A DNA stretch of 64,000 bases, taken from IMG/VR virus record IMGVR_UViG_3300042519_001676, positions 1-64,000 of that record. One strand, given 5' to 3'. This stretch comes from a virus. The notes below the pieces were generated by a model. The model saw only the letters and a list, made by a program, of their open reading frames with translations. It had not been told where the DNA came from and searched no databases. The position numbers were made by a program, and so were the translations under genes. Below, piece by piece: positions 1-50,483 of this stretch; within the stretch, counting starts at the first letter, position 1, and every line of letters begins with the position of its first letter.

Positions 1-1
1 A

Positions 2-97
2 GGTGTTAGCGATATGACACAACGGTTCCGCATTGTTGATATCAGTGTGGTGGAAGAAGAGATTACTGAACTTGGTGAGGAGAGCTACGATGCCTAA
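2..97 (+). CDS. 3' end of an ORF entering from the window edge
   Basis: Frame 2 is open from base 2 (GVSDMTQRFRIVDISVVEEEITELGEESYDA*) and overlaps the next start at 90. Confidence 0.55.
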   Translation, partial: GVSDMTQRFRIVDISVVEEEITELGEESYDA

Positions 98-665
98 TTG
101 GTGCAACAACTCGGTAGAGATCTACCACGAAGACCCAGCGATGATTGAACGAGTGCGTGAAGCATTCAACAAGGGTGCCCTGCTACAAGAGTTCATCCCA
201 GTGCCAGAGAGTCTGCAGATTGTAGCAGGCTCAGTAGGCGATCCTGTAGAGCAGGCCAAGTTGATAGAGGATACCAATCGTAACCTAGAGGTCCACGGCT
301 ACGGCAACTGGTATGACTACTGCGTAAACGAATGGGGAACTAAGTGGGACATCGGTGCTGATGGCAACCCTGCACAGGACATCCCAGGTGGATTGATGTT
401 GGGCTTTGACTCAGCATGGGCCCCTCCTTGTGCAGCCTATGAGAAGTTGACCGAGCAGGGCTTCCGTATCCGTGCCATGTATTACGAAGGTGGCATGGCC
501 TTTGCCGGCATTTGGGAAGAAGGCAATGATGACTATTACGAGTATGGTGGCTTAGACAGTAAGGGCATTGCTGACACACTGCCTGCAGAACTAGACGAAG
601 CGTTTGGCATCTCTGAGAGTGCGGCAGAATGGGAAGCAGAGAACGCTGAAGAGGATCAAGAATAA
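90..665 (+). CDS. DUF1281/YubB (Api92-like) ferredoxin-like domain protein
   Basis: MPNWCNN start, WYDYCVNEWGTKWD and FDSAWAPP motifs typical of this phage family; GAGGAG upstream of ATG 90 (ORF track start 33 is unlikely). Confidence 0.75.
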   Translation: MPNWCNNSVEIYHEDPAMIERVREAFNKGALLQEFIPVPESLQIVAGSVGDPVEQAKLIEDTNRNLEVHGYGNWYDYCVNEWGTKWDIGADGNPAQDIPGGLMLGFDSAWAPPCAAYEKLTEQGFRIRAMYYEGGMAFAGIWEEGNDDYYEYGGLDSKGIADTLPAELDEAFGISESAAEWEAENAEEDQE

Positions 666-689
666 CCCTACAGCCCCCAGGGGCTTTGG

Positions 690-718
690 TTGACAACTGT
701 GCGTTTTACTGTTATAAT
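690..718 (+). promoter_or_regulatory. early sigma70-type promoter P1
   Basis: TTGACA 690-695, 17 bp, TATAAT 713-718. Confidence 0.9.
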
Positions 719-748
719 ACACTTACACTAAACAGCAAAGGAAGCGAC

Positions 749-1096
749 ATGCAAGCAGTTACATTTAACACAAACGGTCTGGGCTATTGGAGCCGCACTG
801 CTAAGGCAGTAGAGATTGTTGACATGCGTATTAATTACATTAACGACGAAAAGAGCTTCGGCGAGTTGTGTGTTTACTTTAACACAGACACATGGGACGT
901 AAACACAATGGGTCTCATTTATACAGACAAACAGTTTAAGCGAGAGCTTAACGAGTTTCTCGTAGCACAGGGTCTTGCAACTGCGGAGTATAGCGAGCAG
1001 GGTATGCAGGGAGAGGACTATGTTAGTTTAGACGTAGAGGGCAAGTTCCTGCAACTGTGGGAAGCTAAGTTTGGGACAGTACTAGTAGTCGAGTAA
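749..1096 (+). CDS. hypothetical early protein
   Basis: Start moved to ATG 749, downstream of P1 and an AAGGAAG RBS. Confidence 0.8.
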   Translation: MQAVTFNTNGLGYWSRTAKAVEIVDMRINYINDEKSFGELCVYFNTDTWDVNTMGLIYTDKQFKRELNEFLVAQGLATAEYSEQGMQGEDYVSLDVEGKFLQLWEAKFGTVLVVE

Positions 1097-1112
1097 AGTG
1101 GAAGGGCATTGC

Positions 1113-1141
1113 TTGACAGCAGTGCCTTTTTGCGTTATAAT
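1113..1141 (+). promoter_or_regulatory. early promoter P2, -35 box in a hairpin loop
   Basis: TTGACA 1113-1118, 17 bp, TATAAT 1136-1141; flanked by inverted repeat 1102-1129. Confidence 0.9.
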
Positions 1142-1166
1142 ACACTTACACTAAACAGGAGCAGAC

Positions 1167-1364
1167 ATGTTGTCAAACGCAGAAAAGAGTGCTTTACTCA
1201 ACAAAGCAGTAGACATGCTTAACGAAGCAGACGCACTAGTGCAACAGGCACTAGGGGATAGCGATGTAACTTGGGAAACCCATATTGCAATACAAAGTAT
1301 TGCTGACGACATTGTGTCAGACATTATTGAGTTTGACGACATGTCGGCAAAGGAGCAGGCATGA
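1167..1364 (+). CDS. small acidic hypothetical protein
   Basis: AGGAG RBS, follows P2, ATGA overlap with next gene. Confidence 0.8.
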   Translation: MLSNAEKSALLNKAVDMLNEADALVQQALGDSDVTWETHIAIQSIADDIVSDIIEFDDMSAKEQA

Positions 1365-1600
1365 TCACAGCAGCCAACGTTCGCTACATGATCGACATCC
1401 CTGTCGAGCATATGAAAGCCATTGCCGTTGAGAACAAGATCAGCGGCTATGCTATCACAGGGGTCAAGTTCCTGGGCATGACTAACGGCAGCGAGTTCTG
1501 CTATCACATTGTCCACGAGGTCAAAGGCGGCAGTGACAGTGCCAAAATGTTCCTGCGATATGACCCTACAGCGGATAGGGTTACTGCCAGCATCGGTTGA
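1361..1600 (+). CDS. hypothetical early protein
   Basis: AAGGAG RBS; stop TGA lies inside the next TTGACA. Confidence 0.8.
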   Translation: MITAANVRYMIDIPVEHMKAIAVENKISGYAITGVKFLGMTNGSEFCYHIVHEVKGGSDSAKMFLRYDPTADRVTASIG

Positions 1601-1625
1601 CAGTTGGACAGATCTTTGTTATAAT
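1597..1625 (+). promoter_or_regulatory. early promoter P3
   Basis: TTGACA 1597-1602, 17 bp, TATAAT 1620-1625. Confidence 0.9.
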
Positions 1626-1651
1626 ACATACATCGCAACAAGGAGCACACT

Positions 1652-1921
1652 ATGCAAGCAGTCAACATCAGCAACATCACTAAAGTTTACTCGGGCAAGG
1701 CCGGGACCTGTATGTGCGGTTGTGCAGGCAAGTACAGTTACACGGCTAAAGGGGCAGTAGAAGACAGCCCGGGCTATGACGTAAGCGACAGTGTCAACGA
1801 GCGTAGTGTCAAGATCATAGCAGGCAAAGTGTTGCGTAATAGCAACACAGATCGTAGTGATGCAGGCTATGCAGTACTTGACCAAAATGGTCGGGTATTG
1901 GTTGTGTTTTTCAAAGACTGA
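1652..1921 (+). CDS. hypothetical protein with CxCGCxG motif
   Basis: AAGGAG RBS; YSGKAGTCMCGCAGKY motif. Confidence 0.8.
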   Translation: MQAVNISNITKVYSGKAGTCMCGCAGKYSYTAKGAVEDSPGYDVSDSVNERSVKIIAGKVLRNSNTDRSDAGYAVLDQNGRVLVVFFKD

Positions 1922-1930
1922 TGTTATAAT
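1902..1930 (+). promoter_or_regulatory. early promoter P4 (degenerate -35)
   Basis: TTGTGT 1902-1907, 17 bp, TATAAT 1925-1930; leader 37/38 identical to that of P3. Confidence 0.75.
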
Positions 1931-1956
1931 ACATATATCGCAACAAGGAGCACACT

Positions 1957-2202
1957 ATGAAAGTATCACAACTCATCGAGCAACTGCAATGCATGGATGC
2001 CGAAGCAGAAGTTCACTTCAGCTACTGCTACGGTGACCACTGGCGTACTGAGGTCGCTCCTAGCGTGAGCCGTGTTGACGAAGGTGTAGTGGAGTTCAGC
2101 GACTACCACCGCATGGACAAGATGGTAGACGACGAGGACTGCTACGACGAAGAAACGGGCAACTACAAAGAGTCCGTCCGCCGCGTTGTTGTGCTAGGTT
2201 AA
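1957..2202 (+). CDS. hypothetical early protein
   Basis: AAGGAG RBS; MKVSQLIEQLQ..D.EAEV N-terminus common in small phage proteins. Confidence 0.8.
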   Translation: MKVSQLIEQLQCMDAEAEVHFSYCYGDHWRTEVAPSVSRVDEGVVEFSDYHRMDKMVDDEDCYDEETGNYKESVRRVVVLG

Positions 2203-2209
2203 GGAGAAA

Positions 2210-2398
2210 ATGATGAAGATCACGATTACTGTTCCAAAACATGCTGTCAAATCAGTCAAGGCCTACGTTAAAGAACTCAATGGCAAGACTCCTTCTACAA
2301 AAGTGCTAGAGAAGTTCTTTGAGCAGGACATCGAGGGCTTTTACGGCGATACCTTTGAAGAAGGCATTGAGGATGCCGTAGAAAATTATTTCGGTTGA
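2210..2398 (+). CDS. hypothetical early protein
   Basis: TAAGGAG RBS; stop inside the next TTGACA. Confidence 0.75.
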   Translation: MMKITITVPKHAVKSVKAYVKELNGKTPSTKVLEKFFEQDIEGFYGDTFEEGIEDAVENYFG

Positions 2399-2423
2399 CA
2401 AAGTCGGTAAAACCTGTTATAAT
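2395..2423 (+). promoter_or_regulatory. early promoter P5
   Basis: TTGACA 2395-2400, 17 bp, TATAAT 2418-2423. Confidence 0.9.
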
Positions 2424-2449
2424 ACATACTTAAACAACAAGGACTTCAA

Positions 2450-2584
2450 ATGCAAAAGACTATCGCTTCAAGCACCGGCGGCACTATTACTTTCACTAAG
2501 ACTGGCCTGATCCACACCGCAGGCAAAGCCTACAGCGGTAAGATCGCCGCTCAAGAAGCTAAACAGAAGCCCGCCAAGAAGTAA
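2450..2584 (+). CDS. 44-aa basic protein (not in ORF track)
   Basis: MQKTIASSTGGTITFTKTGLIHTAGKAYSGKIAAQEAKQKPAKK*, AAGGA RBS, fills the gap between P5 and P6. Confidence 0.75.
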   Translation: MQKTIASSTGGTITFTKTGLIHTAGKAYSGKIAAQEAKQKPAKK

Positions 2585-2593
2585 GGGCATTGA

Positions 2594-2622
2594 TTGACAG
2601 CCAATCCAAAAGACGCTATAAT
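2594..2622 (+). promoter_or_regulatory. early promoter P6
   Basis: TTGACA 2594-2599, 17 bp, TATAAT 2617-2622. Confidence 0.9.
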
Positions 2623-2654
2623 TAACACTTACACAAACACACTAGGAGCTGACA

Positions 2655-3161
2655 ATGGGAACACGAAGCACTATTGCATTGGAATTCGCAGACGGCACAG
2701 TTGAGCAGGTCTACTGCCACTGGGACGGCTACTTGGACTACAACGGCAAGACCCTGCAGGAGCACTACTCCGACCCGTTCAAACTGCGTGACTTGATTGA
2801 CATGGGCGGCATTAGTTCGCTAGGCAAGAACATTGGCAAGAAGCATCCCTTTAGCCCTGCTTACAATGAGACTGACGCTTTGAAGCGGGCCAAGATCCAA
2901 ACAGAAATTGACTTGGCTAACGAAGCAGGTTACACTACATTCTACGCACGTGACCGTGGCGAAGAGATCAGCGTCAACAAGTACAAGAACGCAGACGAAT
3001 ACTTCGACTGCTCACAGCAAGAAGAATACGACTACATCCTCCGCAACGTCGACGGCGTGGCTACGTGGTTTGTACGCTGCTATGCTACAGACGGCGTCTG
3101 GGCTACAATGGATGAGGCCCAGGGCCTTGTTGCATTGGTAGCAGAAGGCGAAAACTATTAA
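2655..3161 (+). CDS. conserved phage hypothetical protein (MGTRS...YCHWDGY family)
   Basis: AGGAG RBS; YCHWDGY and EEYDYI motifs. Confidence 0.85.
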   Translation: MGTRSTIALEFADGTVEQVYCHWDGYLDYNGKTLQEHYSDPFKLRDLIDMGGISSLGKNIGKKHPFSPAYNETDALKRAKIQTEIDLANEAGYTTFYARDRGEEISVNKYKNADEYFDCSQQEEYDYILRNVDGVATWFVRCYATDGVWATMDEAQGLVALVAEGENY

Positions 3162-3376
3162 TGACAGGCTTTAAAAGTAAAAAGGAAATGGCTATGAGTA
3201 AAATGGCAGAACTGAGCTACGACATTCAAGAGTTGTACATTGACGGCCTGAGTGCCAAACAGATTGCAGCCGAGTTAGGCTGTCCAGTCGAAATGGTTCT
3301 TGGAGAGCTAGCAGAAATGGGTGTGGCAGATAAGCCACAAGAGGAGGAGATCTATAGCCCCTACTACGGTGCCTAA
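3161..3376 (+). CDS. small HTH-like protein
   Basis: GLSAKQIAAELGCPVEMV resembles an HTH; true start may be 3188 (AAGGAA RBS). Confidence 0.7.
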   Translation: MTGFKSKKEMAMSKMAELSYDIQELYIDGLSAKQIAAELGCPVEMVLGELAEMGVADKPQEEEIYSPYYGA

Positions 3377-3388
3377 ACCAAAAAACGG

Positions 3389-3418
3389 TTGACACTGCCG
3401 TCCAATCAGTGTTATAAT
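3389..3418 (+). promoter_or_regulatory. early promoter P7
   Basis: TTGACA 3389-3394, 18 bp, TATAAT 3413-3418. Confidence 0.85.
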
Positions 3419-3474
3419 TTAATTAATGCGAAACGGTTCGCAGATGACATACACACATACACAAAGGAGTTAAC

Positions 3475-3867
3475 ATGTCTAAATCTTTTACCCACGCTGG
3501 TGTTTCTAAACTGGACGGTAAGTTCAAAGTTCGCTATTGCAATGATAGCCTTCGTACCAAGGTGCTGATCAAGAACGGTCACACTGATATTGATATCTTG
3601 GAGTTGAAGCATCCTATGATCAAAGAGGATGTGGTCACTTACCTGTTGAGCATCAACTTCGACAACGGTAACAAAGAAGTCCGAGCTGCACTAGAAGCAG
3701 AGCAGGGCAAGCGTGAGCCCAAGGCACCTAAGTCAACTGGCAAGGTTGAGAAGGTCAAGGCAGTCAAAGCCACTGCAAAGAAGGCAGTCAAGCCTACGCT
3801 GGAGTCTATCAAGGCCAAGGCCAAAGTGCCTGCAAAGGTTGTTGAGAGCGAAGACGCACCGTTCTGA
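3475..3867 (+). CDS. hypothetical protein with Lys/Ala-rich histone-H1-like tail
   Basis: AAGGAG RBS; C-terminal KAVKATAKKAVKP composition. Confidence 0.8.
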   Translation: MSKSFTHAGVSKLDGKFKVRYCNDSLRTKVLIKNGHTDIDILELKHPMIKEDVVTYLLSINFDNGNKEVRAALEAEQGKREPKAPKSTGKVEKVKAVKATAKKAVKPTLESIKAKAKVPAKVVESEDAPF

Positions 3868-3870
3868 TTT

Positions 3871-3920
3871 ACTGTGGGGTCTTAGTACTCGGTCAGAAAA
3901 CTGGATCCCACAGTCTTTTT
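3871..3920 (+). terminator. stem-loop with T-run, terminator-like, large structured loop
   Basis: ACTGTGGGGTC 3871-3881 pairs with GATCCCACAGT 3904-3914, then CTTTTT. Confidence 0.55.
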
Positions 3921-3937
3921 ACACTTAGGAGTTTGAA

Positions 3938-4168
3938 ATGAAAGCATTTTTAGCAATTGCTGGCGTGCTGGCCACGCTGTTCTTTGTAGTGATCCTGACC
4001 ACGCTGGTCGGCGGCATTGTTGGCTGGTGTGTGAACTTGTTGTTCCCTGTGGTCAATGTAACGCTGAATCAGGTTACTGGCCTGGCACTTGACGCATTTG
4101 ATATGGGTGCGGTCTTGGGCTTCGTTGGTAGTTTCTTCAAGTCTACAAACACTTCGAGCACCAAATGA
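3938..4168 (+). CDS. small membrane protein
   Basis: AGGAG RBS; two hydrophobic stretches. Confidence 0.8.
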   Translation: MKAFLAIAGVLATLFFVVILTTLVGGIVGWCVNLLFPVVNVTLNQVTGLALDAFDMGAVLGFVGSFFKSTNTSSTK

Positions 4169-4383
4169 GCCGCTTACAACTGCACGGGCGTCCCTGGGTA
4201 GTGTTTGACGCCAAAGATAAAGAACATCGCAAATGGTTTGCCGAGTTTAATCGTACAGCCAAATGGGGCCGTTGCCCTGTAAGGTTTGTGGTTAACGATG
4301 ATCACGGTGATCTCATTACCCAAATCCAACGAGAACTGATTGCACACTATGTGGGCAGAGAGTTTGGCAAAATTCGTGGTTGA
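4165..4383 (+). CDS. hypothetical protein
   Basis: ATGA overlap; stop inside the -35 box of P8. Confidence 0.8.
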   Translation: MSRLQLHGRPWVVFDAKDKEHRKWFAEFNRTAKWGRCPVRFVVNDDHGDLITQIQRELIAHYVGREFGKIRG

Positions 4384-4408
4384 TTTACCAGTCTAGGTTA
4401 TGTATACT
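4380..4408 (+). promoter_or_regulatory. early promoter P8
   Basis: TTGATT 4380-4385, 17 bp, TATACT 4403-4408. Confidence 0.7.
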
Positions 4409-4448
4409 TGTTATTAACTGCACAGCAGTCTAAAACAAGGAAACTATT

Positions 4449-4718
4449 ATGAAAACAATTAACCCAGAAACCAAAACCGGTAAGCTATTCACAGCATTGA
4501 AGTCAGGCGAAGCAGTAACTCCTGCTCAGGCTGCAAAGCGTTTCGGTATTAAGAATGTCACAGCTGAAGTCAGTCGCATTCGTCAAAGCGGTTTTGCAGT
4601 GTATGCAAACAACCGCAAAGCCGGTAACGGTGTTGCAGTCACAGAGTATGTGATGGGTCAACCAAGCCGCAAGTTGATTGCCGCAGGTTATAAGGCTATG
4701 GCTCTCGGCCTAGTTTAA
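4449..4718 (+). CDS. winged helix-turn-helix DNA-binding protein
   Basis: LKSGEAVTPAQAAKRFGIKNVTAEVSRIRQSGF is a wHTH pattern; AAGGAA RBS. Confidence 0.75.
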   Translation: MKTINPETKTGKLFTALKSGEAVTPAQAAKRFGIKNVTAEVSRIRQSGFAVYANNRKAGNGVAVTEYVMGQPSRKLIAAGYKAMALGLV

Positions 4719-4737
4719 AGAGAGCTCGCTCCTAAGT

Positions 4738-4800
4738 CCTGGGGGTAGTGTCCCAGGCAAACCCCCGAGCCCCGCCCTGCTGTGAAGCATCGCGGGGCTC
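4738..4800 (+). other. GC-rich structured intergenic element (two hairpins)
   Basis: CCTGGG/CCCAGG stem and GAGCCCCGC/GCGGGGCTC stem with inner TGCT/AGCA. Confidence 0.55.
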
Positions 4801-4805
4801 ACCTT

Positions 4806-4823
4806 TGTTGTAAAAATACAACA
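4806..4823. promoter_or_regulatory. putative operator palindrome upstream of P9
   Basis: TGTTGTA-AAAA-TACAACA, ending 10 bp before the -35; second copy at 6903-6920. Confidence 0.6.
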
Positions 4824-4833
4824 CCAAAAGAGG

Positions 4834-4862
4834 TTGACAGAGTGGTAAAACCTTGCTATAAT
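4834..4862 (+). promoter_or_regulatory. early promoter P9
   Basis: TTGACA 4834-4839, 17 bp, TATAAT 4857-4862. Confidence 0.9.
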
Positions 4863-4889
4863 ACATACATAGACAGCAAGGAGCACACA

Positions 4890-4973
4890 ATGACAGGAAC
4901 TGAAATTATCGTAACCACACTGATCGTAGCGGCAATCTTCGCTATCAAGTGCTGGATCATCACTAAACTCTAA
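4890..4973 (+). CDS. 27-aa single-TM peptide
   Basis: MTGTEIIVTTLIVAAIFAIKCWIITKL*, AAGGAG RBS after P9. Confidence 0.7.
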   Translation: MTGTEIIVTTLIVAAIFAIKCWIITKL

Positions 4974-4983
4974 GGAGCAGGAC

Positions 4984-5301
4984 ATGGCTAAACTGTTAAT
5001 CACAACCCAGGTCTACGAGAACTACGGTGCCCATGATTGGGACGGTAAGAACGAGTGCCCACAGTACTGGAAAGCCAAAGGCGGTTCGGACTACGTGGTC
5101 AAGAAGTTCAAAGGTGGCTCTACTGATGCTACCATGGCGGTCATGTGCCTGCGAGCACAGATCGAGTCAGACAACGATCACTTCCGTGAGACTGTGATCG
5201 ACTTCCGCATTGTCAAGGACGACTACCTTACAGAGTTTGAGCAGAGCCAGCTGGACTACGAAGGTAAGATCCGTTTTGCATCTAAGGAGTTGGTATGGTA
5301 A
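4984..5301 (+). CDS. conserved phage hypothetical protein (ENYGAHDW...YWKAKGG family)
   Basis: TAAGGAG RBS; motif recurrent in T4-like phages. Confidence 0.85.
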   Translation: MAKLLITTQVYENYGAHDWDGKNECPQYWKAKGGSDYVVKKFKGGSTDATMAVMCLRAQIESDNDHFRETVIDFRIVKDDYLTEFEQSQLDYEGKIRFASKELVW

Positions 5302-5519
5302 GAGAGCACATTGAGATGGACACACGACACGGTGGTCCTTATGATCGCGGTATGGCAGACAGCTACTACCGCAGGGACTACAATCCCCACTACTACCTGG
5401 GCGACACCAAAGCTTCAGGGCGTGTCATCCTCAAGGACATGACACCCGATGAGATCGTGGCCTACACCGCAGGCTTCAACGACAACGAAGAGATGGGCGA
5501 CTACAAGGAATGGCTATAA
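5295..5519 (+). CDS. conserved hypothetical protein (HGGPYDRG.ADSYY family)
   Basis: TAAGGAG RBS; overlaps previous stop. Confidence 0.8.
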   Translation: MVREHIEMDTRHGGPYDRGMADSYYRRDYNPHYYLGDTKASGRVILKDMTPDEIVAYTAGFNDNEEMGDYKEWL

Positions 5520-5528
5520 CCCTACTGG

Positions 5529-5557
5529 TTGACAGGTTATCCAAAAGGCGTTATAAT
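5529..5557 (+). promoter_or_regulatory. early promoter P10
   Basis: TTGACA 5529-5534, 17 bp, TATAAT 5552-5557. Confidence 0.9.
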
Positions 5558-5587
5558 ACATACATAGACAGCAACAAGGAGCAGAAC

Positions 5588-5800
5588 ATGGGATATCGCG
5601 TAATGGACACCGTAGACATGATGCGTGACAAGTACAGTGCCCGCAAGGGACTAGAGGGTCCGTTCAACTTCTCCGGTCGTGTTCTGTACTACGATGTCAA
5701 GGAAGGTCTGTACTACGATCCTACTACAGACTTCTATGTGTTCAAAGAAGAGATGGACATCATCAACAATCAATTTATGGAGCATTTCAAGAATGGCTGA
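5588..5800 (+). CDS. conserved hypothetical protein (GLEGPF...YYD family)
   Basis: Start moved to ATG 5588 after an AAGGAG RBS. Confidence 0.8.
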   Translation: MGYRVMDTVDMMRDKYSARKGLEGPFNFSGRVLYYDVKEGLYYDPTTDFYVFKEEMDIINNQFMEHFKNG

Positions 5801-5990
5801 CATCTCGATTCACCCTAAGCTGAACCCACTAGAAGTGATTCTAGTTGAGGAGTACATGACCAAGCACTGGCCCCGGGTCACACACTATACAATGACTCCG
5901 GGCAACGAATGCGTCTGGGTCTATTACAGCAACATGAACCTCTACTTCGTATTCCGTGACGGAAAAGTGGTTGACGTCCAGATCGATTGA
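5793..5990 (+). CDS. hypothetical protein
   Basis: Start moved to ATG 5793 (GGAG upstream); C-terminus VVDVQID* is encoded across promoter P11. Confidence 0.7.
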   Translation: MADISIHPKLNPLEVILVEEYMTKHWPRVTHYTMTPGNECVWVYYSNMNLYFVFRDGKVVDVQID

Positions 5991-5999
5991 AGTTATAAT
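5971..5999 (+). promoter_or_regulatory. early promoter P11
   Basis: TTGACG 5971-5976, 17 bp, TATAAT 5994-5999. Confidence 0.85.
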
Positions 6000-6028
6000 A
6001 CATACACACTAACACAAAAGGAGCTCAC

Positions 6029-6418
6029 ATGTATAATTGGCACGATCTTATCCGCCCTATGGAACTGCAACACGCTATCAACTTCCTAGGTGCCAGCCGC
6101 AAAGCCTATAACAAGAACTCTGGTGAGAAGGCTCTGAACTTCCAAGAGACCTTTGACATGATCGAAGAGTGTGCCCCTAATGTAGGCACTAATCAAGATC
6201 ACGCTATGATGAAGACCATCCAAGCTCACATTGATGAGAAACTGGCCAAGTTGGAAGCCCAACTGTGGAAGGACCTCGCCAAGCAGGTCGACGTCAAGGC
6301 TGTGAACCAGATGCTCAAGGACGACATGCTGTTTGAAGACAGTGACGAGTACATGATGACCGATGAAGAGTACGAAGAGTCGGAGTTCTACGACGAGGAC
6401 AACGGCTACGGCTATTAA
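6029..6418 (+). CDS. hypothetical protein with acidic C-terminus
   Basis: AAGGAG RBS; D/E-rich tail. Confidence 0.8.
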   Translation: MYNWHDLIRPMELQHAINFLGASRKAYNKNSGEKALNFQETFDMIEECAPNVGTNQDHAMMKTIQAHIDEKLAKLEAQLWKDLAKQVDVKAVNQMLKDDMLFEDSDEYMMTDEEYEESEFYDEDNGYGY

Positions 6419-6426
6419 CCCGCCAG

Positions 6427-6455
6427 TTGACAGGGTTTCCAAAAGGCGTTATAAT
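6427..6455 (+). promoter_or_regulatory. early promoter P12
   Basis: TTGACA 6427-6432, 17 bp, TATAAT 6450-6455; 36/38 identical to the P10 region. Confidence 0.9.
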
Positions 6456-6481
6456 ACATACATCGCAACAAGGAGTTGACT

Positions 6482-6595
6482 ATGTTAAAATTGATAGGTT
6501 GGTGTACAGTGATTTGGGCCATGTTCCATTTTGGTATCGCTCAACTGATTGCAATCTACACCATGCTGGCCCTTTCTTTTATCGCAGGAGTTTAA
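6482..6595 (+). CDS. 37-aa hydrophobic peptide (not in ORF track)
   Basis: MLKLIGWCTVIWAMFHFGIAQLIAIYTMLALSFIAGV*, AAGGAG RBS. Confidence 0.7.
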   Translation: MLKLIGWCTVIWAMFHFGIAQLIAIYTMLALSFIAGV

Positions 6596-6596
6596 T

Positions 6597-6680
6597 ATGC
6601 AGGCCTACATCAACCTAGCTATTGTTATGATGCCCGTCATCGTTATGGGTTTGGCAATGATCATCATGGGAGAGTTCTAA
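6597..6680 (+). CDS. 27-aa hydrophobic peptide (not in ORF track)
   Basis: MQAYINLAIVMMPVIVMGLAMIIMGEF*, AGGAG RBS, TAATG coupling to next gene. Confidence 0.7.
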   Translation: MQAYINLAIVMMPVIVMGLAMIIMGEF

Positions 6681-6934
6681 TGTCAGTTGAGTTCACAATC
6701 CAAGGGCTCAATGCCCAACAGCGAGTCCTAGCAGACATCATCTGGGCCTGCCGAGACTTTGCAGGTGTTCAGAAGTTCATCAAGGCACTGCCTACACAGG
6801 CCCTGCGTGACGAAGCTTGCTCCATCGTAGAGCTGATGAAGATGGCGGCCATCGAACAATGCTACGACGGAGTCAATCAGGAGATGGAAGAAGCTGACAG
6901 TGTGTTGCGAAAATACAACACCAAAAGAGGTTGA
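6680..6934 (+). CDS. hypothetical protein
   Basis: GGAG RBS; last codons run through the palindrome and stop in TTGACA of P13. Confidence 0.8.
   Translation: MSVEFTIQGLNAQQRVLADIIWACRDFAGVQKFIKALPTQALRDEACSIVELMKMAAIEQCYDGVNQEMEEADSVLRKYNTKRG
6903..6920. promoter_or_regulatory. second copy of putative operator
   Basis: TGTTG-CGAAAATA-CAACA, same 10-bp spacing to the -35 as 4806-4823. Confidence 0.55.
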
Positions 6935-6959
6935 CAGGTTTGTGGTTTTACCATATAAT
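6931..6959 (+). promoter_or_regulatory. early promoter P13
   Basis: TTGACA 6931-6936, 17 bp, TATAAT 6954-6959. Confidence 0.9.
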
Positions 6960-6988
6960 ACATACTTAAACAACGCAAAGGAAACACT

Positions 6989-7351
6989 ATGTTCGCAGTA
7001 GCCGCTAAAGAGACTTTCAACGCAGACGCAGTCCAAGACGCATGTAACGAAGCCGCAATCCAAGCTCGTACAGCCTGCAAGCAGACGCTGGCCCAAATGG
7101 GTGGCGACCGTGGTGCTTGTGGCTTTGCTTGGGTTAACGTGTGGGGCGTCCGTAGCAACTCCAAACTGGGCAAGGCCCTGTTGGCCGCAGGCTTCCGCAA
7201 AGACTACACCGGTTCACTGCAATTGTGGAATCCGGGCAAGGCGGCTGCACAGAGCATCGACGTTCTGGAAGCAGGTGCCTATGCATACGCAGAGGTGCTC
7301 AAAGAGAAATTGGGCTTGGAGAAGGTCTACGCTGGCTCGCGTATGGACTGA
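6989..7351 (+). CDS. conserved phage hypothetical protein (CGFAWV...SRxD family)
   Basis: AAGGAA RBS; ACGFAWVNV and YAGSRMD motifs. Confidence 0.85.
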   Translation: MFAVAAKETFNADAVQDACNEAAIQARTACKQTLAQMGGDRGACGFAWVNVWGVRSNSKLGKALLAAGFRKDYTGSLQLWNPGKAAAQSIDVLEAGAYAYAEVLKEKLGLEKVYAGSRMD

Positions 7352-7370
7352 TAAGTAAGACTGATAGGGC

Positions 7371-7399
7371 TTGACACTAGGCCCTATTGGTGTTATAAT
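7371..7399 (+). promoter_or_regulatory. early promoter P14, -35 box in a hairpin loop
   Basis: TTGACA 7371-7376, 17 bp, TATAAT 7394-7399; ATAGGGC/GCCCTAT arms. Confidence 0.9.
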
Positions 7400-7429
7400 A
7401 CTAACTTCGCAACACACTAAGGAAGCAAA

Positions 7430-8308
7430 ATGGCAACAGCAAAGAAGGCAGCACAGAAACCCAGCAAGGGCACCACCGTTCTGGAGTTTGACACACAGGC
7501 TATCAAAGCCAACGAGAACCGCGTGGCACGTGAAACAGATCAAGAGATCCTGGCCAGATTGGGCGAGCGTTTTGAGATTCTGGACGAGATGACCAAGGCT
7601 GTGAAGTCAGGTGATGTCCGTGCTATGATCGTATCGGGTCCTCCGGGCGTGGGCAAGAGCTACGGTGTTGAGGCAGTACTGCAAAAAGCAGACCTCTTCA
7701 ATACCTTAGCAGAGAAGAAGCCCAAGTTTGAGATCGTCAAAGGTGCTATGTCAGCACTGGGTCTCTACGCTAAACTCTACGAGTTCTCGGATGCAGGTAA
7801 CGTTGTAGTGTTTGACGACTGCGACTCAATCCTTATGGAAGACCTGAGCCTGAACATCCTTAAGGGTGCCTTGGACAGTTCAGAACGCCGTTTCATTGCT
7901 TGGAACACTGACAGCCGCTTGCTACGCTCAGAAGGCATTCCAGATCGCTTTGAGTTCAAAGGTGCAGCCATCTTCATCACTAATATTAAGTTCGAGCACG
8001 TAAAGTCTAAGCGACTGCGTGATCACTTGGATGCATTGGAAAGCCGTTGCCACTACATCGATCTGCAGATGGACACTGATCGTGAGAAGATACTCCGTAT
8101 CAAGCAGGTTGTAAATGAAAAGGGCATGTTGGACCGCTACGATTTCGAGCAGTGTGTGAAAGACGAGATTGTTACCTTCGTAGAGCAGAACCAGAGCAAG
8201 CTTCGTGAGCTGAGCCTGCGTATGGTACTGAAGTTGGCAGACCTGCGTAAGAGCTTTCCAAAGAGCTGGACTGCAATGGCCAAGACAACCTGTATGAAGC
8301 GAGTCTAA
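7430..8308 (+). CDS. AAA+ family ATPase
   Basis: Walker A GPPGVGKS, Walker B VVVFDDCD, sensor-1 IFITN, arginine finger ALESRC. Confidence 0.9.
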   Translation: MATAKKAAQKPSKGTTVLEFDTQAIKANENRVARETDQEILARLGERFEILDEMTKAVKSGDVRAMIVSGPPGVGKSYGVEAVLQKADLFNTLAEKKPKFEIVKGAMSALGLYAKLYEFSDAGNVVVFDDCDSILMEDLSLNILKGALDSSERRFIAWNTDSRLLRSEGIPDRFEFKGAAIFITNIKFEHVKSKRLRDHLDALESRCHYIDLQMDTDREKILRIKQVVNEKGMLDRYDFEQCVKDEIVTFVEQNQSKLRELSLRMVLKLADLRKSFPKSWTAMAKTTCMKRV

Positions 8309-8309
8309 C

Positions 8310-8510
8310 ATGTTGACTAGGCTAGCACTGTACACCGCATTGGGCCTAGTGCTCAGTGCTGTGGGTGCCACACTGGACACATGGCAGTTCTGGTCAGTGG
8401 TGGGATTGTTCTGGGCATCGGAGCACTTGACCAGACAGGAACTGTGGGATCAGATCACTGAAGAAGTAGCTCGGATGCGAGCAGACAACAACAACAAGGA
8501 CACACCATGA
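8310..8510 (+). CDS. small membrane protein
   Basis: Hydrophobic N-half; tight packing with neighbours. Confidence 0.7.
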   Translation: MLTRLALYTALGLVLSAVGATLDTWQFWSVVGLFWASEHLTRQELWDQITEEVARMRADNNNKDTP

Positions 8511-8812
8511 AGCAGCAGAGCACACAGATCACAGCATGTACCTACCTGGGTCACACCAACACTGCCTGTGGACACGCAACACTGCCCGGCAAGAGCTACT
8601 GTGCAGAGCACTACGCAATGGTCTACAAGGTAGGCTCGGGCACACGTAGACGCAAGGACGAACTGATCGCACAGAAGGTTAGGCTAGTAGAGTCACTGTT
8701 CAACGATGCTATCGAACAGCTGGAAGCAGAAGGATTTGACTGCTACGGCACATCAGAACTCAAGACTAATCAGTTCGAGGCTGATGAGGACCAGGTGGTG
8801 GTGGGGCACTGA
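8507..8812 (+). CDS. protein with GcrA C-terminal-like Cys/His motif
   Basis: CTYLG...CGHATLPGKSYCAEHYAMVY resembles GcrA C-W-P-x-G...FCG...PYCxEH...AY. Confidence 0.65.
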   Translation: MKQQSTQITACTYLGHTNTACGHATLPGKSYCAEHYAMVYKVGSGTRRRKDELIAQKVRLVESLFNDAIEQLEAEGFDCYGTSELKTNQFEADEDQVVVGH

Positions 8813-8844
8813 GGTGGGGTGGGGCACTGAGGTGGGGTGGGGGG
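8800..8844 (+). repeat. 18-bp tandem repeat with five G>=4 tracts
   Basis: GGTGGGGCACTGAGGTGG at 8800-8817 and 8818-8835, then GGTGGGGGG. Confidence 0.85.
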
Positions 8845-9093
8845 TCGCTCCCCTGCTGCCGCTTGCCCGCTAGCTTTGCTTGCTTGTCAAACTTTTTCCA
8901 AAATCCCCACCCCTGTTAGACTAGATCACCAGGACCACGGTTCTCACTCTATACTTTTAACTGCGTAGTAATTTTTTGCGGGCTATATAGACCGGGGTTG
9001 TAAAACTCTCGGCCACTACTGTTTTGCACTCTTGAAAATTTTTTTACGCAATTTTTTGTCCGCTGTATACTTCGGCCTGTATAAGTACACACT

Positions 9094-9279
9094 ATGAGCA
9101 CAAGACAATACGCTATATACACTCTAGATCCCAATTTCCGCTACTGTTTAGAATGGGTTGGTCAGCATAACCTACAGTGGGAACCGCACCTAAACCGTAC
9201 TCGCTTTTGGGTTCCCGAAGGTCCACTACTCACAGAGTTCTTACTACGTTGGGGTCAGCATTGTGAGCACATTGACTAG
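9094..9279 (+). CDS. hypothetical protein
   Basis: TAAGTA late-type box 6 nt before ATG; EPHLNRTRFWVP motif. Confidence 0.7.
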   Translation: MSTRQYAIYTLDPNFRYCLEWVGQHNLQWEPHLNRTRFWVPEGPLLTEFLLRWGQHCEHID

Positions 9280-9300
9280 TGTTGGTACTGTAAATACACT

Positions 9301-9495
9301 ATGCGTCTATTATACACTGCGTTGAGTCTTGTGCCCGCACCCTTGTTCTTTATAGGTTTCATTTGGAGCCTGTTTAATCACAGTCCCATCTGCGGCACTG
9401 ACTATAGTATGACTGCCATGTGGTTTATCATGAGTCTAGCACATGTTCTACCTTGGCTACTGTGGTGGCAACAGCGTAACTTTACCGGGCCATGA
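9301..9495 (+). CDS. small membrane protein
   Basis: TAAATA 4 nt before ATG; two hydrophobic segments. Confidence 0.7.
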   Translation: MRLLYTALSLVPAPLFFIGFIWSLFNHSPICGTDYSMTAMWFIMSLAHVLPWLLWWQQRNFTGP

Positions 9496-9681
9496 CCAAC
9501 AGCAGTGATACATGCCCTGTGTACTGGCCCATGCTGACCAATAGTAACAGTCCAATACTGCCTGTTCATCCACTATCCACAGTAGATCTTTCAACAGTAG
9601 TGTACCTTTTGGACCACTGATAACAGCGTCTAGTCTATTTGGATTCAGTGTTTGTGCAGTGACTCTCACCAATGAGATCAT
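9457..9681 (-). CDS. hypothetical protein
   Basis: ATGA overlap with 9678..10223. Confidence 0.5.
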   Translation of the reverse strand: MISLVRVTAQTLNPNRLDAVISGPKGTLLLKDLLWIVDEQAVLDCYYWSAWASTQGMYHCCWSWPGKVTLLPPQ

Positions 9682-10223
9682 TGTGCTTCAGGGTTAGTCA
9701 ACATAGAGTATGCTATTGGACCCACATCCAGCATTAGACTGATACGTCTTACATGCCGTCTTGTGACCACTGTAGCACGTGGAATTTTGGTGTTGATCAC
9801 TGTGGGCTTTCTCATAGTGACTCGTGCCATTTCTACAGCACTTTCACTGTTATATCTCCAGTAGTTGGCTGTCACAGTGGGATCATACTTGAGCATTTCA
9901 GCTGTGGGATAGTAAGCAGTGTATCCATACTCACAGCCTATAACTGGAATTTCCAATCTAGCACCCGGGCCCAATATTTCAGAGTATATAGCAGTACTGT
10001 CCAACTCTTTTAACACAGTAAGACTAGCAGTTTTCACAGTGAAATTATACAGACTCAACAGTGGACGTATAGTGGGAATTTCATTGTACAGCATGTCCAA
10101 ACTGATTTCACGCCATGGGATTGTTATGGGGTTATGAATCAGATCCAAACTCAATGCCAGCATTGCTGCCTGCTGTTGGATAGCTGAATGTTCGTAGTCT
10201 AGTTGTTTATAGTAGGGCAGCAT
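9678..10223 (-). CDS. hypothetical protein, possibly a degenerate double-stranded beta-helix (oxygenase-like) fold
   Basis: TAAATA 4 nt upstream; ARLEIPV...PTVINTKIP...RRISL layout, but no HxD...H ligands. Confidence 0.65.
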   Translation of the reverse strand: MLPYYKQLDYEHSAIQQQAAMLALSLDLIHNPITIPWREISLDMLYNEIPTIRPLLSLYNFTVKTASLTVLKELDSTAIYSEILGPGARLEIPVIGCEYGYTAYYPTAEMLKYDPTVTANYWRYNSESAVEMARVTMRKPTVINTKIPRATVVTRRHVRRISLMLDVGPIAYSMLTNPEAQ

Positions 10224-10326
10224 CCAGTATTTATTTTAATGTGGTTTAAATTATTATCTGGGTAGTTTATGTTAGAAAAATTTCTGCGTTACCGCTTCGC
10301 GGCTTCGCCGCAAGAAACAGGAATGT

Positions 10327-11268
10327 TCAGATCTGCCGGATGGGGATCAAGCGTTTGGGAGTTAATATGTCCGTGGTGCAGTGGCAGTGGTTCAGTTCAC
10401 AGATCACGGATTCTGTGGGCCATTTCAGCAGGGGATCTTTCAGCCATCCTATATATCCGCCCTGCGAGCAGTTGCCCCTACGATAGCTGCCGTCGTACTG
10501 CACAAATAGGCTGTTTAGGCCAATGTCACATTGCCAGCCGGTGAAATAGTGTTTATTCTGGCTGATCAGCTGATTTGCCCAGGGACCCGATGCATATTCA
10601 GTGTGGCCCGCTAGATAGTGTACAGTGGCAGAATATTCCAACTTGTCAGTGGCAAAAGGACGGGGCTTTTTGTTCCGGCACTGGTCCAACCATGCTAGCT
10701 GTTCCTCAGTGTACAGTACTGTTTGACTGCCACCGCCCCAATCCAATATGCGTACAGCTTCTACACCCATGGGAGTTGCCTGCAACATTTTAAACACTCT
10801 GACACATTGATCCCATCGATCGGGATCCATCATTATTCTGGCAGTGGTGTGCGGTATCAGCTGATTAGTAGCCACAGCACGAACAACCCACTCATCGTCT
10901 GCGTATTCGGCATGATAGCTGAGACAGATATAGTCCGGGCGGCAATCACTCCAGTAATGAGCAGCACGAACACCGTTTGAAGTCACTCCTACCTGATGCC
11001 CCCTGCTGAGAAATAGATTAATGAGATCTTTAAGCCAGGGACTCACAGTGGGTTCACCACCTGCTATGGCCAACTGTATATGTTCATGTCGATCCATCAG
11101 GGCCAGGGCAAAACGTTCTGCGTGTGCCCATTCATAGTGATGATTTTTTCCAGAATGCAGTGTTGAAGGGCAGTAACGGCAGTGGTTGGTGCAGATATTG
11201 TTGATACTCCAGGTCAATTGGAATACAGGGTCGTTAGCTGTGATTTCTAAAATTTCAGTGTTTACCAT
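10327..11268 (-). CDS. radical SAM protein with C-terminal Cys-rich (SPASM/twitch-like) domain
   Basis: CTNHCRYC (CxxxCxxC), GGEPT, TSNG; C-terminal CDIG...GNC...CELNHCHC. Confidence 0.9.
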   Translation of the reverse strand: MVNTEILEITANDPVFQLTWSINNICTNHCRYCPSTLHSGKNHHYEWAHAERFALALMDRHEHIQLAIAGGEPTVSPWLKDLINLFLSRGHQVGVTSNGVRAAHYWSDCRPDYICLSYHAEYADDEWVVRAVATNQLIPHTTARIMMDPDRWDQCVRVFKMLQATPMGVEAVRILDWGGGSQTVLYTEEQLAWLDQCRNKKPRPFATDKLEYSATVHYLAGHTEYASGPWANQLISQNKHYFTGWQCDIGLNSLFVQYDGSYRRGNCSQGGYIGWLKDPLLKWPTESVICELNHCHCTTDILTPKRLIPIRQI

Positions 11269-11336
11269 ACAGAGTATTTACTTGTTAATATCCTGCTAAA
11301 TATAAAAATTAGCATATCTAAACAGGATAACCTTGA

Positions 11337-16723
<5,387 letters not shown>

Positions 16724-27719: not shown

Positions 27720-27967
27720 TAATAGTCCTCGTCTTCTTCGGAATAACCGTCGTCTTCTTCGTCTTCGAATTCTTTTTCTTCATCAACCACTGCCTTAACA
27801 GCAATGTCTAGATGAGGATCATATCCCATAAGAGCTTCAAGTGCGGCAATTTCGACATCCTTGCCTAACAAGAAATCAACGTACTGATGAGCAGCCAATT
27901 CTTTGTTTTTGTCTGGGATATATTCTCGGAAGGTATCCCATACCTCCATAATCAATGCTTCTTCCAT
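27719..27967 (-). CDS. small acidic hypothetical protein
   Basis: TAATG coupling on both sides; D/E-rich tail. Confidence 0.75.
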   Translation of the reverse strand: MEEALIMEVWDTFREYIPDKNKELAAHQYVDFLLGKDVEIAALEALMGYDPHLDIAVKAVVDEEKEFEDEEDDGYSEEDEDY

Positions 27968-29025
27968 TATGCTTCCTCAGTATCTTCAGCAACTACTGCC
28001 GCAATATCCATTGCAGCTTCGTCCCATTCATCCATAATAATTTTTAACTTGTCTTCAGTCCAACCTTTTCGGAAAAAAGAATGAACTTCGCCAGTTTCTT
28101 TACTTATATATTGTAGCTTATTTCCGCTCTTTGTCAAAACGTTTTTAGCTTCAAATAAGTCCACTAATCCGGACGTCGGTGCCATACCTGTTGCATACGG
28201 GATCTCAACTTGTACTGACTCAAATGGTTTTGCATAACGAGTTTTCATAATCTTACAAGCAGAACGGATACCGTTAACTGTTGTAGTCTTATTACCATCT
28301 GCGTCTGTTTTCAATTTCAATTTACGCATAGCAACTACAATAGAGCTAGCATAAATGAAGCCTTGGCCTCCACTGATCTTGTCATCAGGGTCAAACATAT
28401 CCTGGCTAGCATAGGTGTGGTTAGTACAAACTAACCCAACGTTATAGCTACCAAACATGTTGACACAATTACGAACAAGAGATGTAAGTGCTTTGGGTTT
28501 ACGGCCCATGTCACCTTTCATTTCGCCTGCTTCAAACTGATTTACGTCAGTAGGAGTCAACAACATGCCTAAAGAATCAATTACAAACAAAATTTTTGGA
28601 CGTTCTTCCAACGGCATTGTTTTATATTCTTTCATGAATTCACTAATGGTTTTTGCCACGTCGTCAATCATAGCCATGTTAAGTTTTAGAAGTTTTTTCT
28701 CTGAAGTATCAACACCAAGTGCGTGTAGCCATGCTTCGTCAAGTGCATTTTCGCTATCAACTAGGATAACATACATGTCTTGCTCTTGTGCATGTTTAAT
28801 AATGTTGCCTGAACAAATATAACTCTTACCTGCACCGCTTTCGCCTGCGAAAACAGTAACTTTACCAAGGGGGACCCCTTTATTAAAGTCCCCCGAGATC
28901 AAGTAGTTAAGAGCAAAGTTGCCAGTTGAAATCCAGTCAGTAGGATCGTTGAAGCCAATACCTAAGCCTTCAATAGACTTAGTGATGGACTTGCGAAACT
29001 TAGAAATATCAAATGATTTTGCCAT
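27967..29025 (-). CDS. uvsX: UvsX/RecA recombinase
   Basis: GESGAGKS, DSENA, VIDSLG, ISGG motifs. Confidence 0.95.
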   Translation of the reverse strand: MAKSFDISKFRKSITKSIEGLGIGFNDPTDWISTGNFALNYLISGDFNKGVPLGKVTVFAGESGAGKSYICSGNIIKHAQEQDMYVILVDSENALDEAWLHALGVDTSEKKLLKLNMAMIDDVAKTISEFMKEYKTMPLEERPKILFVIDSLGMLLTPTDVNQFEAGEMKGDMGRKPKALTSLVRNCVNMFGSYNVGLVCTNHTYASQDMFDPDDKISGGQGFIYASSIVVAMRKLKLKTDADGNKTTTVNGIRSACKIMKTRYAKPFESVQVEIPYATGMAPTSGLVDLFEAKNVLTKSGNKLQYISKETGEVHSFFRKGWTEDKLKIIMDEWDEAAMDIAAVVAEDTEEA

Positions 29026-50088: not shown

Positions 50089-50483
50089 TCCTCTACTGCA
50101 TCGCTATAGTAATTTAGAGTTTTTAAGAAATCATATGCTTGTTCTACCACTGTTTTTGTAGATGCCATGTCAATAGACATCCAGAAATTAGTTTCTGATT
50201 TGGTTTCAACTCGCATGTCTGCAGGTACATCTGTAGGATAAACTCCAATATGTGCAATTGGTAATTTGCCTGCATCTCTTGCAGCTTTATTATAAAATAC
50301 CTGTACGCATACTCTACCGTAGTATCCTTTTTTCCACTGCCAATCAGGACAGTTAGCCGGTCTAACACCTCCCGGATCCGGAATATCTGTTGGAATCTTA
50401 TGTGTTATAACTTGACTTATTACATGGTACGCAGAGTCGGCGTCAATACCATTAGCAAGTTCATACCTTTTAATTAGTGCCAT
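50085..50483 (-). CDS. hypothetical protein, possible fibre assembly factor
   Basis: Overlaps fibre stop; AYH and QAYDFLKTL motifs. Confidence 0.75.

Follow-up and report, generated by a model that had tools for sequence, protein, structure and literature searches.

Promoter-leader cassettes that probably double as recombination linkers in the early gene array of a lake jumbo phage

We analysed a stretch of 64,000 nucleotides (the window) from the IMG/VR virus record IMGVR_UViG_3300042519_001676, which opens with a series of small genes in groups of one to three, each group preceded by a repeated unit of promoter, leader and ribosome-binding site (RBS), here called a cassette. We consider it probable (about 0.7) that these cassettes serve early expression and double as linkers for homologous recombination. 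They would then be similar to the promoter early stem-loop (PeSL) elements of T4-type phages, without an obligatory stem-loop and in a new jumbo-phage lineage. The concept itself is published; what is new is the lineage, the density of the array and the statistical mapping of the crossover zone.

Searching the window for TTGACA-N17-TATAATAC with up to two mismatches returned 14 matches, 11 of which lie at 690-7401, all on the plus strand, where 0.83 would be expected by chance and where 100 shuffles gave a maximum of three. An earlier note on this DNA had listed 14 promoter-leader-RBS units, and all of them are present, as the 11 pattern matches plus P4, P7 and P8 (Table 1). They run from 690 to 7432 on the plus strand and comprise 11 canonical units, one with an 18-nt spacer and two that are degenerate. 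The identities between copies given in that note are exact (37/38 for 1617-1654 against 1922-1959, 36/38 for 5528-5565 against 6426-6463, and 28/28 for 4813-4840 against 6910-6937). The extent it proposed, 686-7432, holds for these units, but the array itself is larger and reaches about 5 kb upstream of the window start. In the parent record 19 of the 21 matches with at most one mismatch are on this strand, from -4970 to 7401 in window orientation (negative numbers denote positions upstream of the window), and the reversed control pattern has no match. A consensus scan of 16 kb located 22 sites with 11-12 of 12 matching positions (19 perfect and three at 11/12), all on one strand; together with two weak sites, the full array amounts to 24 units in 12.4 kb.

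Each of the 14 units in the window ends at its 3' side in a Shine-Dalgarno (SD)-like sequence and an ATG, and the leader is 26-33 nt long in 12 of them. Leaders, typically of about 27-31 nt, are G-poor and A/C-rich, with a strong composition bias at all positions. The cassette core, made up of the -35, the -10 and the first leader bases, recurs about every 480 bp in direct orientation. Among 722 cassettes from the clade, the stop codon of the upstream gene typically sits at the promoter edge, at a median of 6 nt before the -35. The commonest arrangement across relatives, found in 132 of the 722, is that the TGA within TTGACA is itself the upstream stop codon, as seen in the window at 1598-1600 (g1361), 2396-2398 (g2210) and 6932-6934 (g6680).

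Relatives were retrieved from IMG/VR with the ATPase protein encoded at the end of the array and a 26-nt cassette word, which yielded 154 loci in 103 clusters at 99% identity. The same array is found in more than 70 relatives. The 40 loci that extend 5 kb or more upstream of the ATPase (356 kb in all) contain 532 cassettes in forward orientation and 2 in reverse, counted at no more than one mismatch, with a median density of 1.7 per kb, and because of this the array is a feature of the clade. The earlier note had named a fixed gene order among relatives as the observation that would speak against shuffling; in maps of 45 listed relatives the order is instead very fluid, with a loose backbone and many insertions, losses, duplications and relocations. 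The gene g2450 stands ahead of g2655 in the reference and some relatives and ahead of g6989 in many others, g6989 itself is located far upstream in some relatives, and in three of them g-2109 immediately precedes the ATPase. The promoter-proximal position stays with the downstream gene (385/456 against 63/383).

The position of the exchange points was mapped by linkage, using the 722 cassettes with called open reading frames (ORFs) on both sides, drawn from 91 loci with one locus per 99% cluster and paired between different clusters. Where two cassettes shared the upstream gene only, identity across the bins of the 17-nt spacer was 0.38/0.43/0.44 against a background of 0.28/0.34/0.36, and neither the RBS nor the downstream gene's first codons rose above background. 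Where they shared the downstream gene only, the spacer was near background (0.31/0.37/0.38), and the RBS and coding start were conserved. At the level of gene families the mean spacer identity with a shared upstream gene was 0.448 against a background of 0.325, with 59 of 73 families above background (p=7e-9), and the signal was also seen where the upstream stop codon lies at least 5 nt before the -35 (37 of 45 families above background, p=8e-7). With a shared downstream gene it was weak (0.362, 46 of 78 families above background, p=0.044), and the two classes differ (p=9e-5). The RBS is the mirror image of this pattern (0.517 against 0.426, p=0.002). Since the spacer tracks the upstream gene and the RBS tracks the downstream gene, most exchange points lie between them, in the best-conserved part of the cassette, formed by the -10 and the early leader. 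A minority of exchange points lie upstream of the -35, among them that of the relocated g2450, whose breakpoint is outside the cassette.

Individual joints can be read in the same way. In the relative L147 a single cassette stands in place of the two that flank g-3185 in the reference; its left part is that of the first and its sequence from the spacer onward is that of the second, with the crossover lying within the shared 18-mer TAGGGTCTTTGGTTGACA. The g-3185 unit, with its own leader, trailing hairpin and -35, is found in L147 relocated ahead of g749, between two other cassettes. A scan of close pairs with flanks at least 93% identical gave 19 events, comprising five clean indels and 14 apparent replacements. 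In all five clean indels at least three of the four breakpoints are at a cassette; one of them exchanges no more than the 5' half of the cassette that precedes the ATPase, and one lies outside the array, immediately after TTGACAGG. The one-gene indels, of 229 bp (L084 against L085) and 191 bp (L040 against L045), have a short allele that consists of the left -35 and spacer joined to the right leader. Crossover points vary by event, falling in an 18-mer at the -35, a 19-mer at the -10 and leader, or a 35-37-mer. Mosaics are also present among the cassettes of the window: P12 has the spacer of P10 (15/17) and the leader of P3 (16/16), and P9 has the upstream sequence of P13 (20/20) and the leader of P10 (16/16). 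The leader of P13 matches that of P5 at 15/16 positions, and P4 has a perfect -10 that, with its leader, is 37/38 identical to P3. That the chimeras are in register argues for pairing between cassettes. The proposal that recombination between promoter repeats excises, inserts and reorders genes thus draws support from the chimeric cassettes at one-gene indels and from the relocated gene, but it does not cover all of the traffic, since promoterless genes also move.

Several observations weigh against recombination linkers as the explanation. In an adjacency test based on the reference, cassette junctions were retained in 140 of 593 cluster observations (21 junctions, mean 0.21) and tight cassette-less junctions in 152 of 557 (17 junctions, mean 0.24), showing no preference for breakage at cassettes (one-sided p=0.23). 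In a reference-free test across 76 genomes, mean conservation was 0.116 for the 174 junction types with a cassette and 0.179 for the 75 tight types without one (p=5e-4). In this test cassette junctions are preferentially broken, modestly so, the cassette-less junctions being just 1.5-fold more stable. The check put forward in the earlier note, whether breakpoints of gene gain and loss fall inside the cassettes, therefore has a divided outcome: in the linkage map exchange points do map inside cassettes, but cassette-less junctions break almost as often. Promoterless g-115 occupies two operon-internal slots, between g2655 and g3161 (11/34 genomes) and between g-384 and g90 (7/24), and the L021/L036 indel consists of an inserted gene that lacks a promoter, its left breakpoint lying within the end of a gene. 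Four of the 14 replacement events have no breakpoint near a cassette; many events of this type are probably merely divergent stretches (below 93% identity) and mostly uninformative. About 13% of the motif matches at two mismatches may be due to chance (1058 forward against 141 reverse), and all of the relatives are short-read metagenome contigs. Finally, the cassette takes up practically the entire intergenic space, so breakpoints would also be expected there if selection did no more than keep genes intact, and such selection adds to the pattern.

The near-equal breakage of cassette-less junctions, the movement of promoterless genes and the filling of the intergenic space by the cassette would all be accommodated if the cassettes were merely strong early promoters and leaders, kept similar by functional constraint on an extended -10, the initial transcribed sequence, an unstructured A/C leader and the SD, with illegitimate or microhomology breaks occurring anywhere and the intergenic ones being selected. 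The G-poor bias of the leaders and a spacer centre rich in W (A or T), which is general among cassettes, also fit function. We nevertheless consider this explanation unlikely. A random break would wreck the promoter, whereas the observed joints are in register and keep the 17-nt spacing, which requires pairing between cassettes. Near-identical segments of 15-20 nt are found recombined among non-orthologous cassettes, which is not what convergence produces, and the spacer, which is little constrained in sequence, tracks the upstream gene also where this gene stops short of the -35. The larger of the two junction tests, moreover, finds cassette junctions somewhat less conserved.

Short-read assemblers could join co-occurring related phages at repeated cassettes, so that the shuffling would largely be an artefact of assembly. 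Besides the metagenomic origin of all the relatives, the behaviour of contigs from single runs is compatible with this: at k=31, in four of the 20 metagenome runs that contain the array, contigs were short and broken at cassettes, with at least 15 joints whose sides measured 20-44 nt. Joints with both ends in promoters, linking window position 2623 to -1784 and 1127 to -2995, were found in 4/4 runs, and repeats or co-occurring relatives explain them. A joint that goes back by 287 around P(-1812) and g-1758, considered as a possible trace of a mini-circle, was found in 2/4 runs; its sides do not exceed 38 nt, and it is accounted for just as well by repeats or by relatives present in the same sample. 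The contig L117, which comes from another assembly and is 100% identical, terminates inside the array. It nonetheless reproduces 12.8 kb of the reference arrangement exactly, and arrangements recur across independent contigs (17 loci in cluster 0 and six in cluster 1), which together argue against wholesale chimerism. In addition, exact repeats between cassettes are no longer than about 38 nt, which is below read length and the usual final k-mers, and a graded linkage with background identity in the non-shared gene is not expected from chimeric assembly. An assembly artefact is for these reasons very improbable as the main source of the pattern.

A dedicated site-specific recombinase, integron-like or other, might instead read a motif in the cassette such as a hairpin or the spacer element GGTAAAACC. 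As a candidate motif, the element GGT-W3-4-ACC occurs at a fixed position of the spacer in 149 of 1047 clade cassettes against 0.5 expected after shuffling, a count uncorrected for relatedness, mostly as GGTAAAACC and sometimes as its complement GGTTTTACC. It is present in the window at 2405-2413, 4845-4853 and 6944-6952 and also in cassettes upstream of the window, and it might act as an operator or a bend, or mark the descent of cassettes. Arbiol et al., 2010 (PMC2839356) likewise leave room for a helper protein in PeSL recombination. Against such an enzyme, no integrase or recombinase domain was found in the 20 of 39 array ORFs scanned with Pfam or in the ten array proteins scanned with PHROG (nine of those 20, plus g7430), and no integrase domain in the flanking ORFs scanned. 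The crossover points differ by event, the linkage gradient is spread over the cassette, and hairpins are not enriched, all of which makes a dedicated recombinase highly improbable.

Clear GC hairpins were seen at the cassettes at -3600, -3240, -3005, -1812, -1483, 690, 1113 and 7371, two of which (1113 and 7371) hold the -35 in the loop. Comparison of the 24 cassettes with 500 control windows showed no enrichment (p=0.15). Among 1043 cassettes, a folding free energy (dG) of -10 or lower was found upstream of the -35 in 18.3% against 18.2% of controls, and in the window enclosing the -35 in 31.6% against 25.8%. Terminator-like sites were likewise not enriched (six against 12.9 expected), and a canonical intrinsic terminator was rejected as part of the cassette. 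As a separate observation, a 32-nt GC-rich insertion able to form a hairpin precedes the -35 of the promoter at -1483 by about 21 nt (at about -1504; L163 11505/11506), and the variant is present in contigs of 4/4 runs, a presence/absence polymorphism of a stem-loop for which the evidence is from contigs only.

On the reading that the cassettes are expression units and recombination linkers at once, the array would be the immediate-early region of the phage, with each cassette acting as a near-consensus promoter for the host sigma-70 RNA polymerase (RNAP), as suggested by its sequence and by what is reported for Pseudomonas phage PA5oct. Each group of one to three ORFans would form a self-sufficient expression unit with promoter, leader, strong SD and ATG, and the directly repeated core would supply short patches of homology to the phage's own recombination machinery. 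Crossovers in register between cassettes would then delete, insert, duplicate or relocate gene units and leave chimeric cassettes that are functional. The products of these events are seen by comparison; the enzymology, suggested by a RecA/UvsX-type gene, and the circular intermediates would be the steps behind them. A second route of change is the gain and loss of promoterless genes at tight gene junctions. The likely enzyme for recombination over short homologies is the predicted RecA/UvsX-type recombinase (Table 1), which adjoins a gp32-like single-stranded DNA-binding protein (SSB) at 29040-30059. The earlier note had credited the phage with UvsX, UvsY and UvsW; a RecA/UvsX-type recombinase is encoded, and UvsY was not found by Pfam among ten neighbouring proteins.

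Table 1. Coordinates of the cassettes P1-P14 and of two further features of the window. Figures after gene names are protein lengths.
Feature	Position	Strand	Description
P1	690..751	+	TTGACA-17-TATAAT, leader acacttacactaaacag.., SD, ATG of g749 (115 aa); GC stem GCCCC/GGGGC plus TTTGG just upstream of promoter
P2	1113..1169	+	Perfect promoter; drives g1167 (65 aa), g1361 (79 aa); hairpin GGCATTGC/GCAGTGCC surrounds -35, then TTTTT
P3	1597..1654	+	Perfect promoter; -35 TGA is g1361 stop; drives g1652 (89 aa)
P4	1902..1959	+	Half cassette, degenerate -35 TTGTGT within g1652; drives g1957 (81 aa), g2210 (62 aa)
P5	2395..2452	+	Perfect promoter, spacer motif GGTAAAACC; -35 TGA is g2210 stop; drives g2450 (44 aa)
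P6	2594..2657	+	TTGACA-17-TATAAT, leader of different type; drives g2655, g3161
P7	3389..3477	+	TTGACA-18-TATAAT, long 57-nt leader; drives g3475 (130 aa), g3938, g4165
P8	4380..4451	+	Weak promoter-like TTGATT-17-TATACT, ahead of g4449 (89 aa)
P9	4834..4892	+	Perfect promoter, spacer GGTAAAACC; drives g4890, g4984, g5295
P10	5529..5590	+	Perfect promoter; drives g5588, g5793
P11	5971..6031	+	TTGACG-17-TATAAT within 3' end of g5793; drives g6029 (129 aa)
P12	6427..6484	+	Mosaic cassette; drives g6482, g6597, g6680
P13	6931..6991	+	Perfect promoter, spacer GGTTTTACC; -35 TGA is g6680 stop; drives g6989 (120 aa)
P14	7371..7432	+	Perfect promoter, hairpin ATAGGGC/GCCCTAT surrounds -35; drives g7430 (292 aa), g8310, g8507
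End of preceding transcription unit (g-115, g90)	1-665	+	Array goes on upstream to about -4970, with 10 more cassettes and tRNA-Met
RecA/UvsX-type recombinase	27967-29025	-	phrog_97, 2e-70 range; Pfam RecA 55.7 bits

Behind the cassettes lie about 39 ORFs, 27-292 aa long, in groups of one to three (about 24 units), and with its cluster of small genes, short operons and host-type promoters and RBS the array has the make-up of a host-takeover module. The ORFans with the highest conservation are g2655, g3475, g4449, g5588 and g6989. When 20 of the 39 were compared with Pfam, 19 had no match above cut-off; the sole match was a winged HTH_39 domain in g4449 (31.1 bits against a cut-off of 21.3). 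Nine small array proteins gave six PHROG matches, all to families of unknown function. The 168-aa g2655 matches phrog_1987, the 71-aa g3161 has a weak helix-turn-helix match, and homologues of g6029 were found in only two relative clusters. The terminal gene of the array, g7430 (7430-8308), encodes a conserved AAA ATPase similar to T4 nrdC.10 (phrog_1250). Several phage records list its homologues as 'thioredoxin', a name that looks like annotation carry-over, and in Acinetobacter phage Acj9 the homologue is called nrdC.10.

A tRNA-Met gene (CAT) lies within the array, past the first cassette, at -3974..-3900 (L163 13901-13975, minus strand of L163). An Rfam scan of the 16-kb array returned this tRNA with its antisense shadow and nothing else; known leader RNAs were absent. 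Behind two perfect promoters, at -656 and -3005, no SD-bearing ORF stands at the usual distance; the leader of the latter is conserved in L147. These promoters may serve small RNAs, or else ORFs that are leaderless or unconventional.

The window corresponds to positions 53320-117319, minus strand, of a virus record of 151,088 bp, with a completeness of 43% according to CheckV. Protein identities indicate that the parent genome is a fragment of an uncultured lake jumbo phage that is distant kin of PA5oct. The DnaB-type helicase shares 51.4% identity with its PA5oct counterpart, Agrobacterium phage Atu_ph07 being next closest, and the ATPase that closes the array shares 49% amino acid identity with its PA5oct homologue. 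The phage is PA5oct-like and not T4-type proper. Core genes of jumbo myoviruses are present (primase, UvsX-like recombinase, gp32-like SSB, large terminase, tail sheath and tail tube), and related contigs reach 331-383 kb. A megablast search of window positions 1-9000 against a phage collection returned no match; 20 lake-water metagenome runs contain at least 91% of the 31-mers sampled from the same region, none of these 20 (of 23 listed) being on record as RNA.

Window positions 1-16200 and about 12 kb upstream in the parent form a GC-rich island (46-49% GC, against 35-42% in the remainder of the record), which spans the early array, a radical-SAM gene and the gene for a collagen-like tail fibre of 1621 aa. 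A chimeric contig was considered as the source of the jump at about 16.2 kb and rejected, as relatives have the same contrast (27 loci; the median is 46.5% on the side of the array and 39.5% at 4-10 kb downstream). The tail-fibre-like protein (11340-16205, plus strand) has seven stretches of collagen repeats and a C-terminal Peptidase_S74 endosialidase-chaperone domain, an intramolecular chaperone. Two very large ORFs lie near the far end of the window, at 50470-57480 (2336 aa) and 57522-63923 (2133 aa), both on the minus strand.

It is possible, and we offer it tentatively, that this clade of abundant lake jumbo phages keeps a dedicated exchange platform that needs no integrase: a GC-enriched early region in which small genes, joined by standardised promoter-leader linkers, would be swapped between co-infecting relatives, possibly as mini-circles, and be expressed at once. 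The sub-family of cassettes carrying GGTAAAACC may add a layer of regulation or of recombination targeting. If this is true, no natural system would be denser or more tractable for following modular evolution of the PeSL type through a time series from one lake. PeSL shuffling is documented in three pairs of T4-type phages (PMC2839356, PMC4122927); finding the same logic in an unrelated-looking jumbo lineage with hundreds of sequenced natural variants allows the crossover zone to be mapped statistically. The array suggests that the use of an early promoter as a standard linker is a recurrent solution for fast turnover of host-interaction genes, and the 20 lake metagenome runs offer a population in which gain and loss could be tracked over years. 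There is also a warning for annotators and assemblers, in that such regions fragment assemblies and their ORFans are real, mobile expression units.

The closest parallel is the PeSL. In RB49 and phi1 these elements consist of a near-perfect sigma-70 promoter with an adjoining stem-loop terminator, an SD and an ATG, and RB49 has about 51 of them per genome, mostly ahead of ORFans in hyperplastic regions (PMC2839356). Recombination between PeSLs removes or adds ORFans and makes mini-circles, and crossovers sequenced in RB49 lie between the -10 and the SD/ATG (PMC2839356). Comeau et al., 2014 (PMC4122927) subsequently added T4/PST and KVP40/nt-1 to the phages with PeSLs. Both systems place a near-perfect TTGACA-N17-TATAAT with SD and ATG immediately ahead of small ORFans, show hyperplastic clustering, and undergo indels, replacements and displacements at the elements that leave chimeric elements behind; both have a crossover zone between -10 and SD and encode a UvsX-type recombinase. 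The array described here differs in belonging to a PA5oct-like jumbo lineage and not to the Straboviridae, in its far higher density (24 units in 12.4 kb against about 51 in the whole RB49 genome), and in that the upstream ORF often ends within the -35 itself (132/722). The stem-loop or terminator is not a regular part of the cassette, all other sequence-level features being shared. Our literature searches on PeSLs and modular shuffling and on hyperplasticity in jumbo phages brought up no account of such an array in a jumbo phage.

PA5oct, the closest cultured relative, relies on the host RNAP and has 32 putative promoters with TTGAC and TATAATA motifs at transcription starts (Lood et al., 2020; PMC7318152). 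These host-RNAP-type motifs resemble the array promoters, but PA5oct has no dense array: its 22 forward matches (at most one mismatch) are spread across 287 kb, and just four small genes stand ahead of its ATPase homologue. On the expression side the closest analogue is SPO1's host-takeover module, of about 12 kb, which holds about two dozen small early genes in many short operons with promoters and RBS typical of highly expressed genes (Stewart et al., 1998, as cited in PMC6873191). A role for promoters in gene shuffling is not described in the available part of that account (PMC6873191). SPO1 also differs in being a Bacillus phage whose module lies in the terminal redundancy, and host shutoff has been demonstrated for several of its genes.

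Integrons combine the tyrosine recombinase IntI with attC and attI sites, and their promoterless cassettes are read from one Pc promoter. They resemble the array in having small exchangeable units on the same strand with a repeated junction; the phage units, too, may leave as circles. The description of the array as integron-like without an integrase stands as an analogy only, in agreement with the domain scans above: here the repeat is itself the promoter, each unit brings its own, and exchange looks like general homologous recombination.

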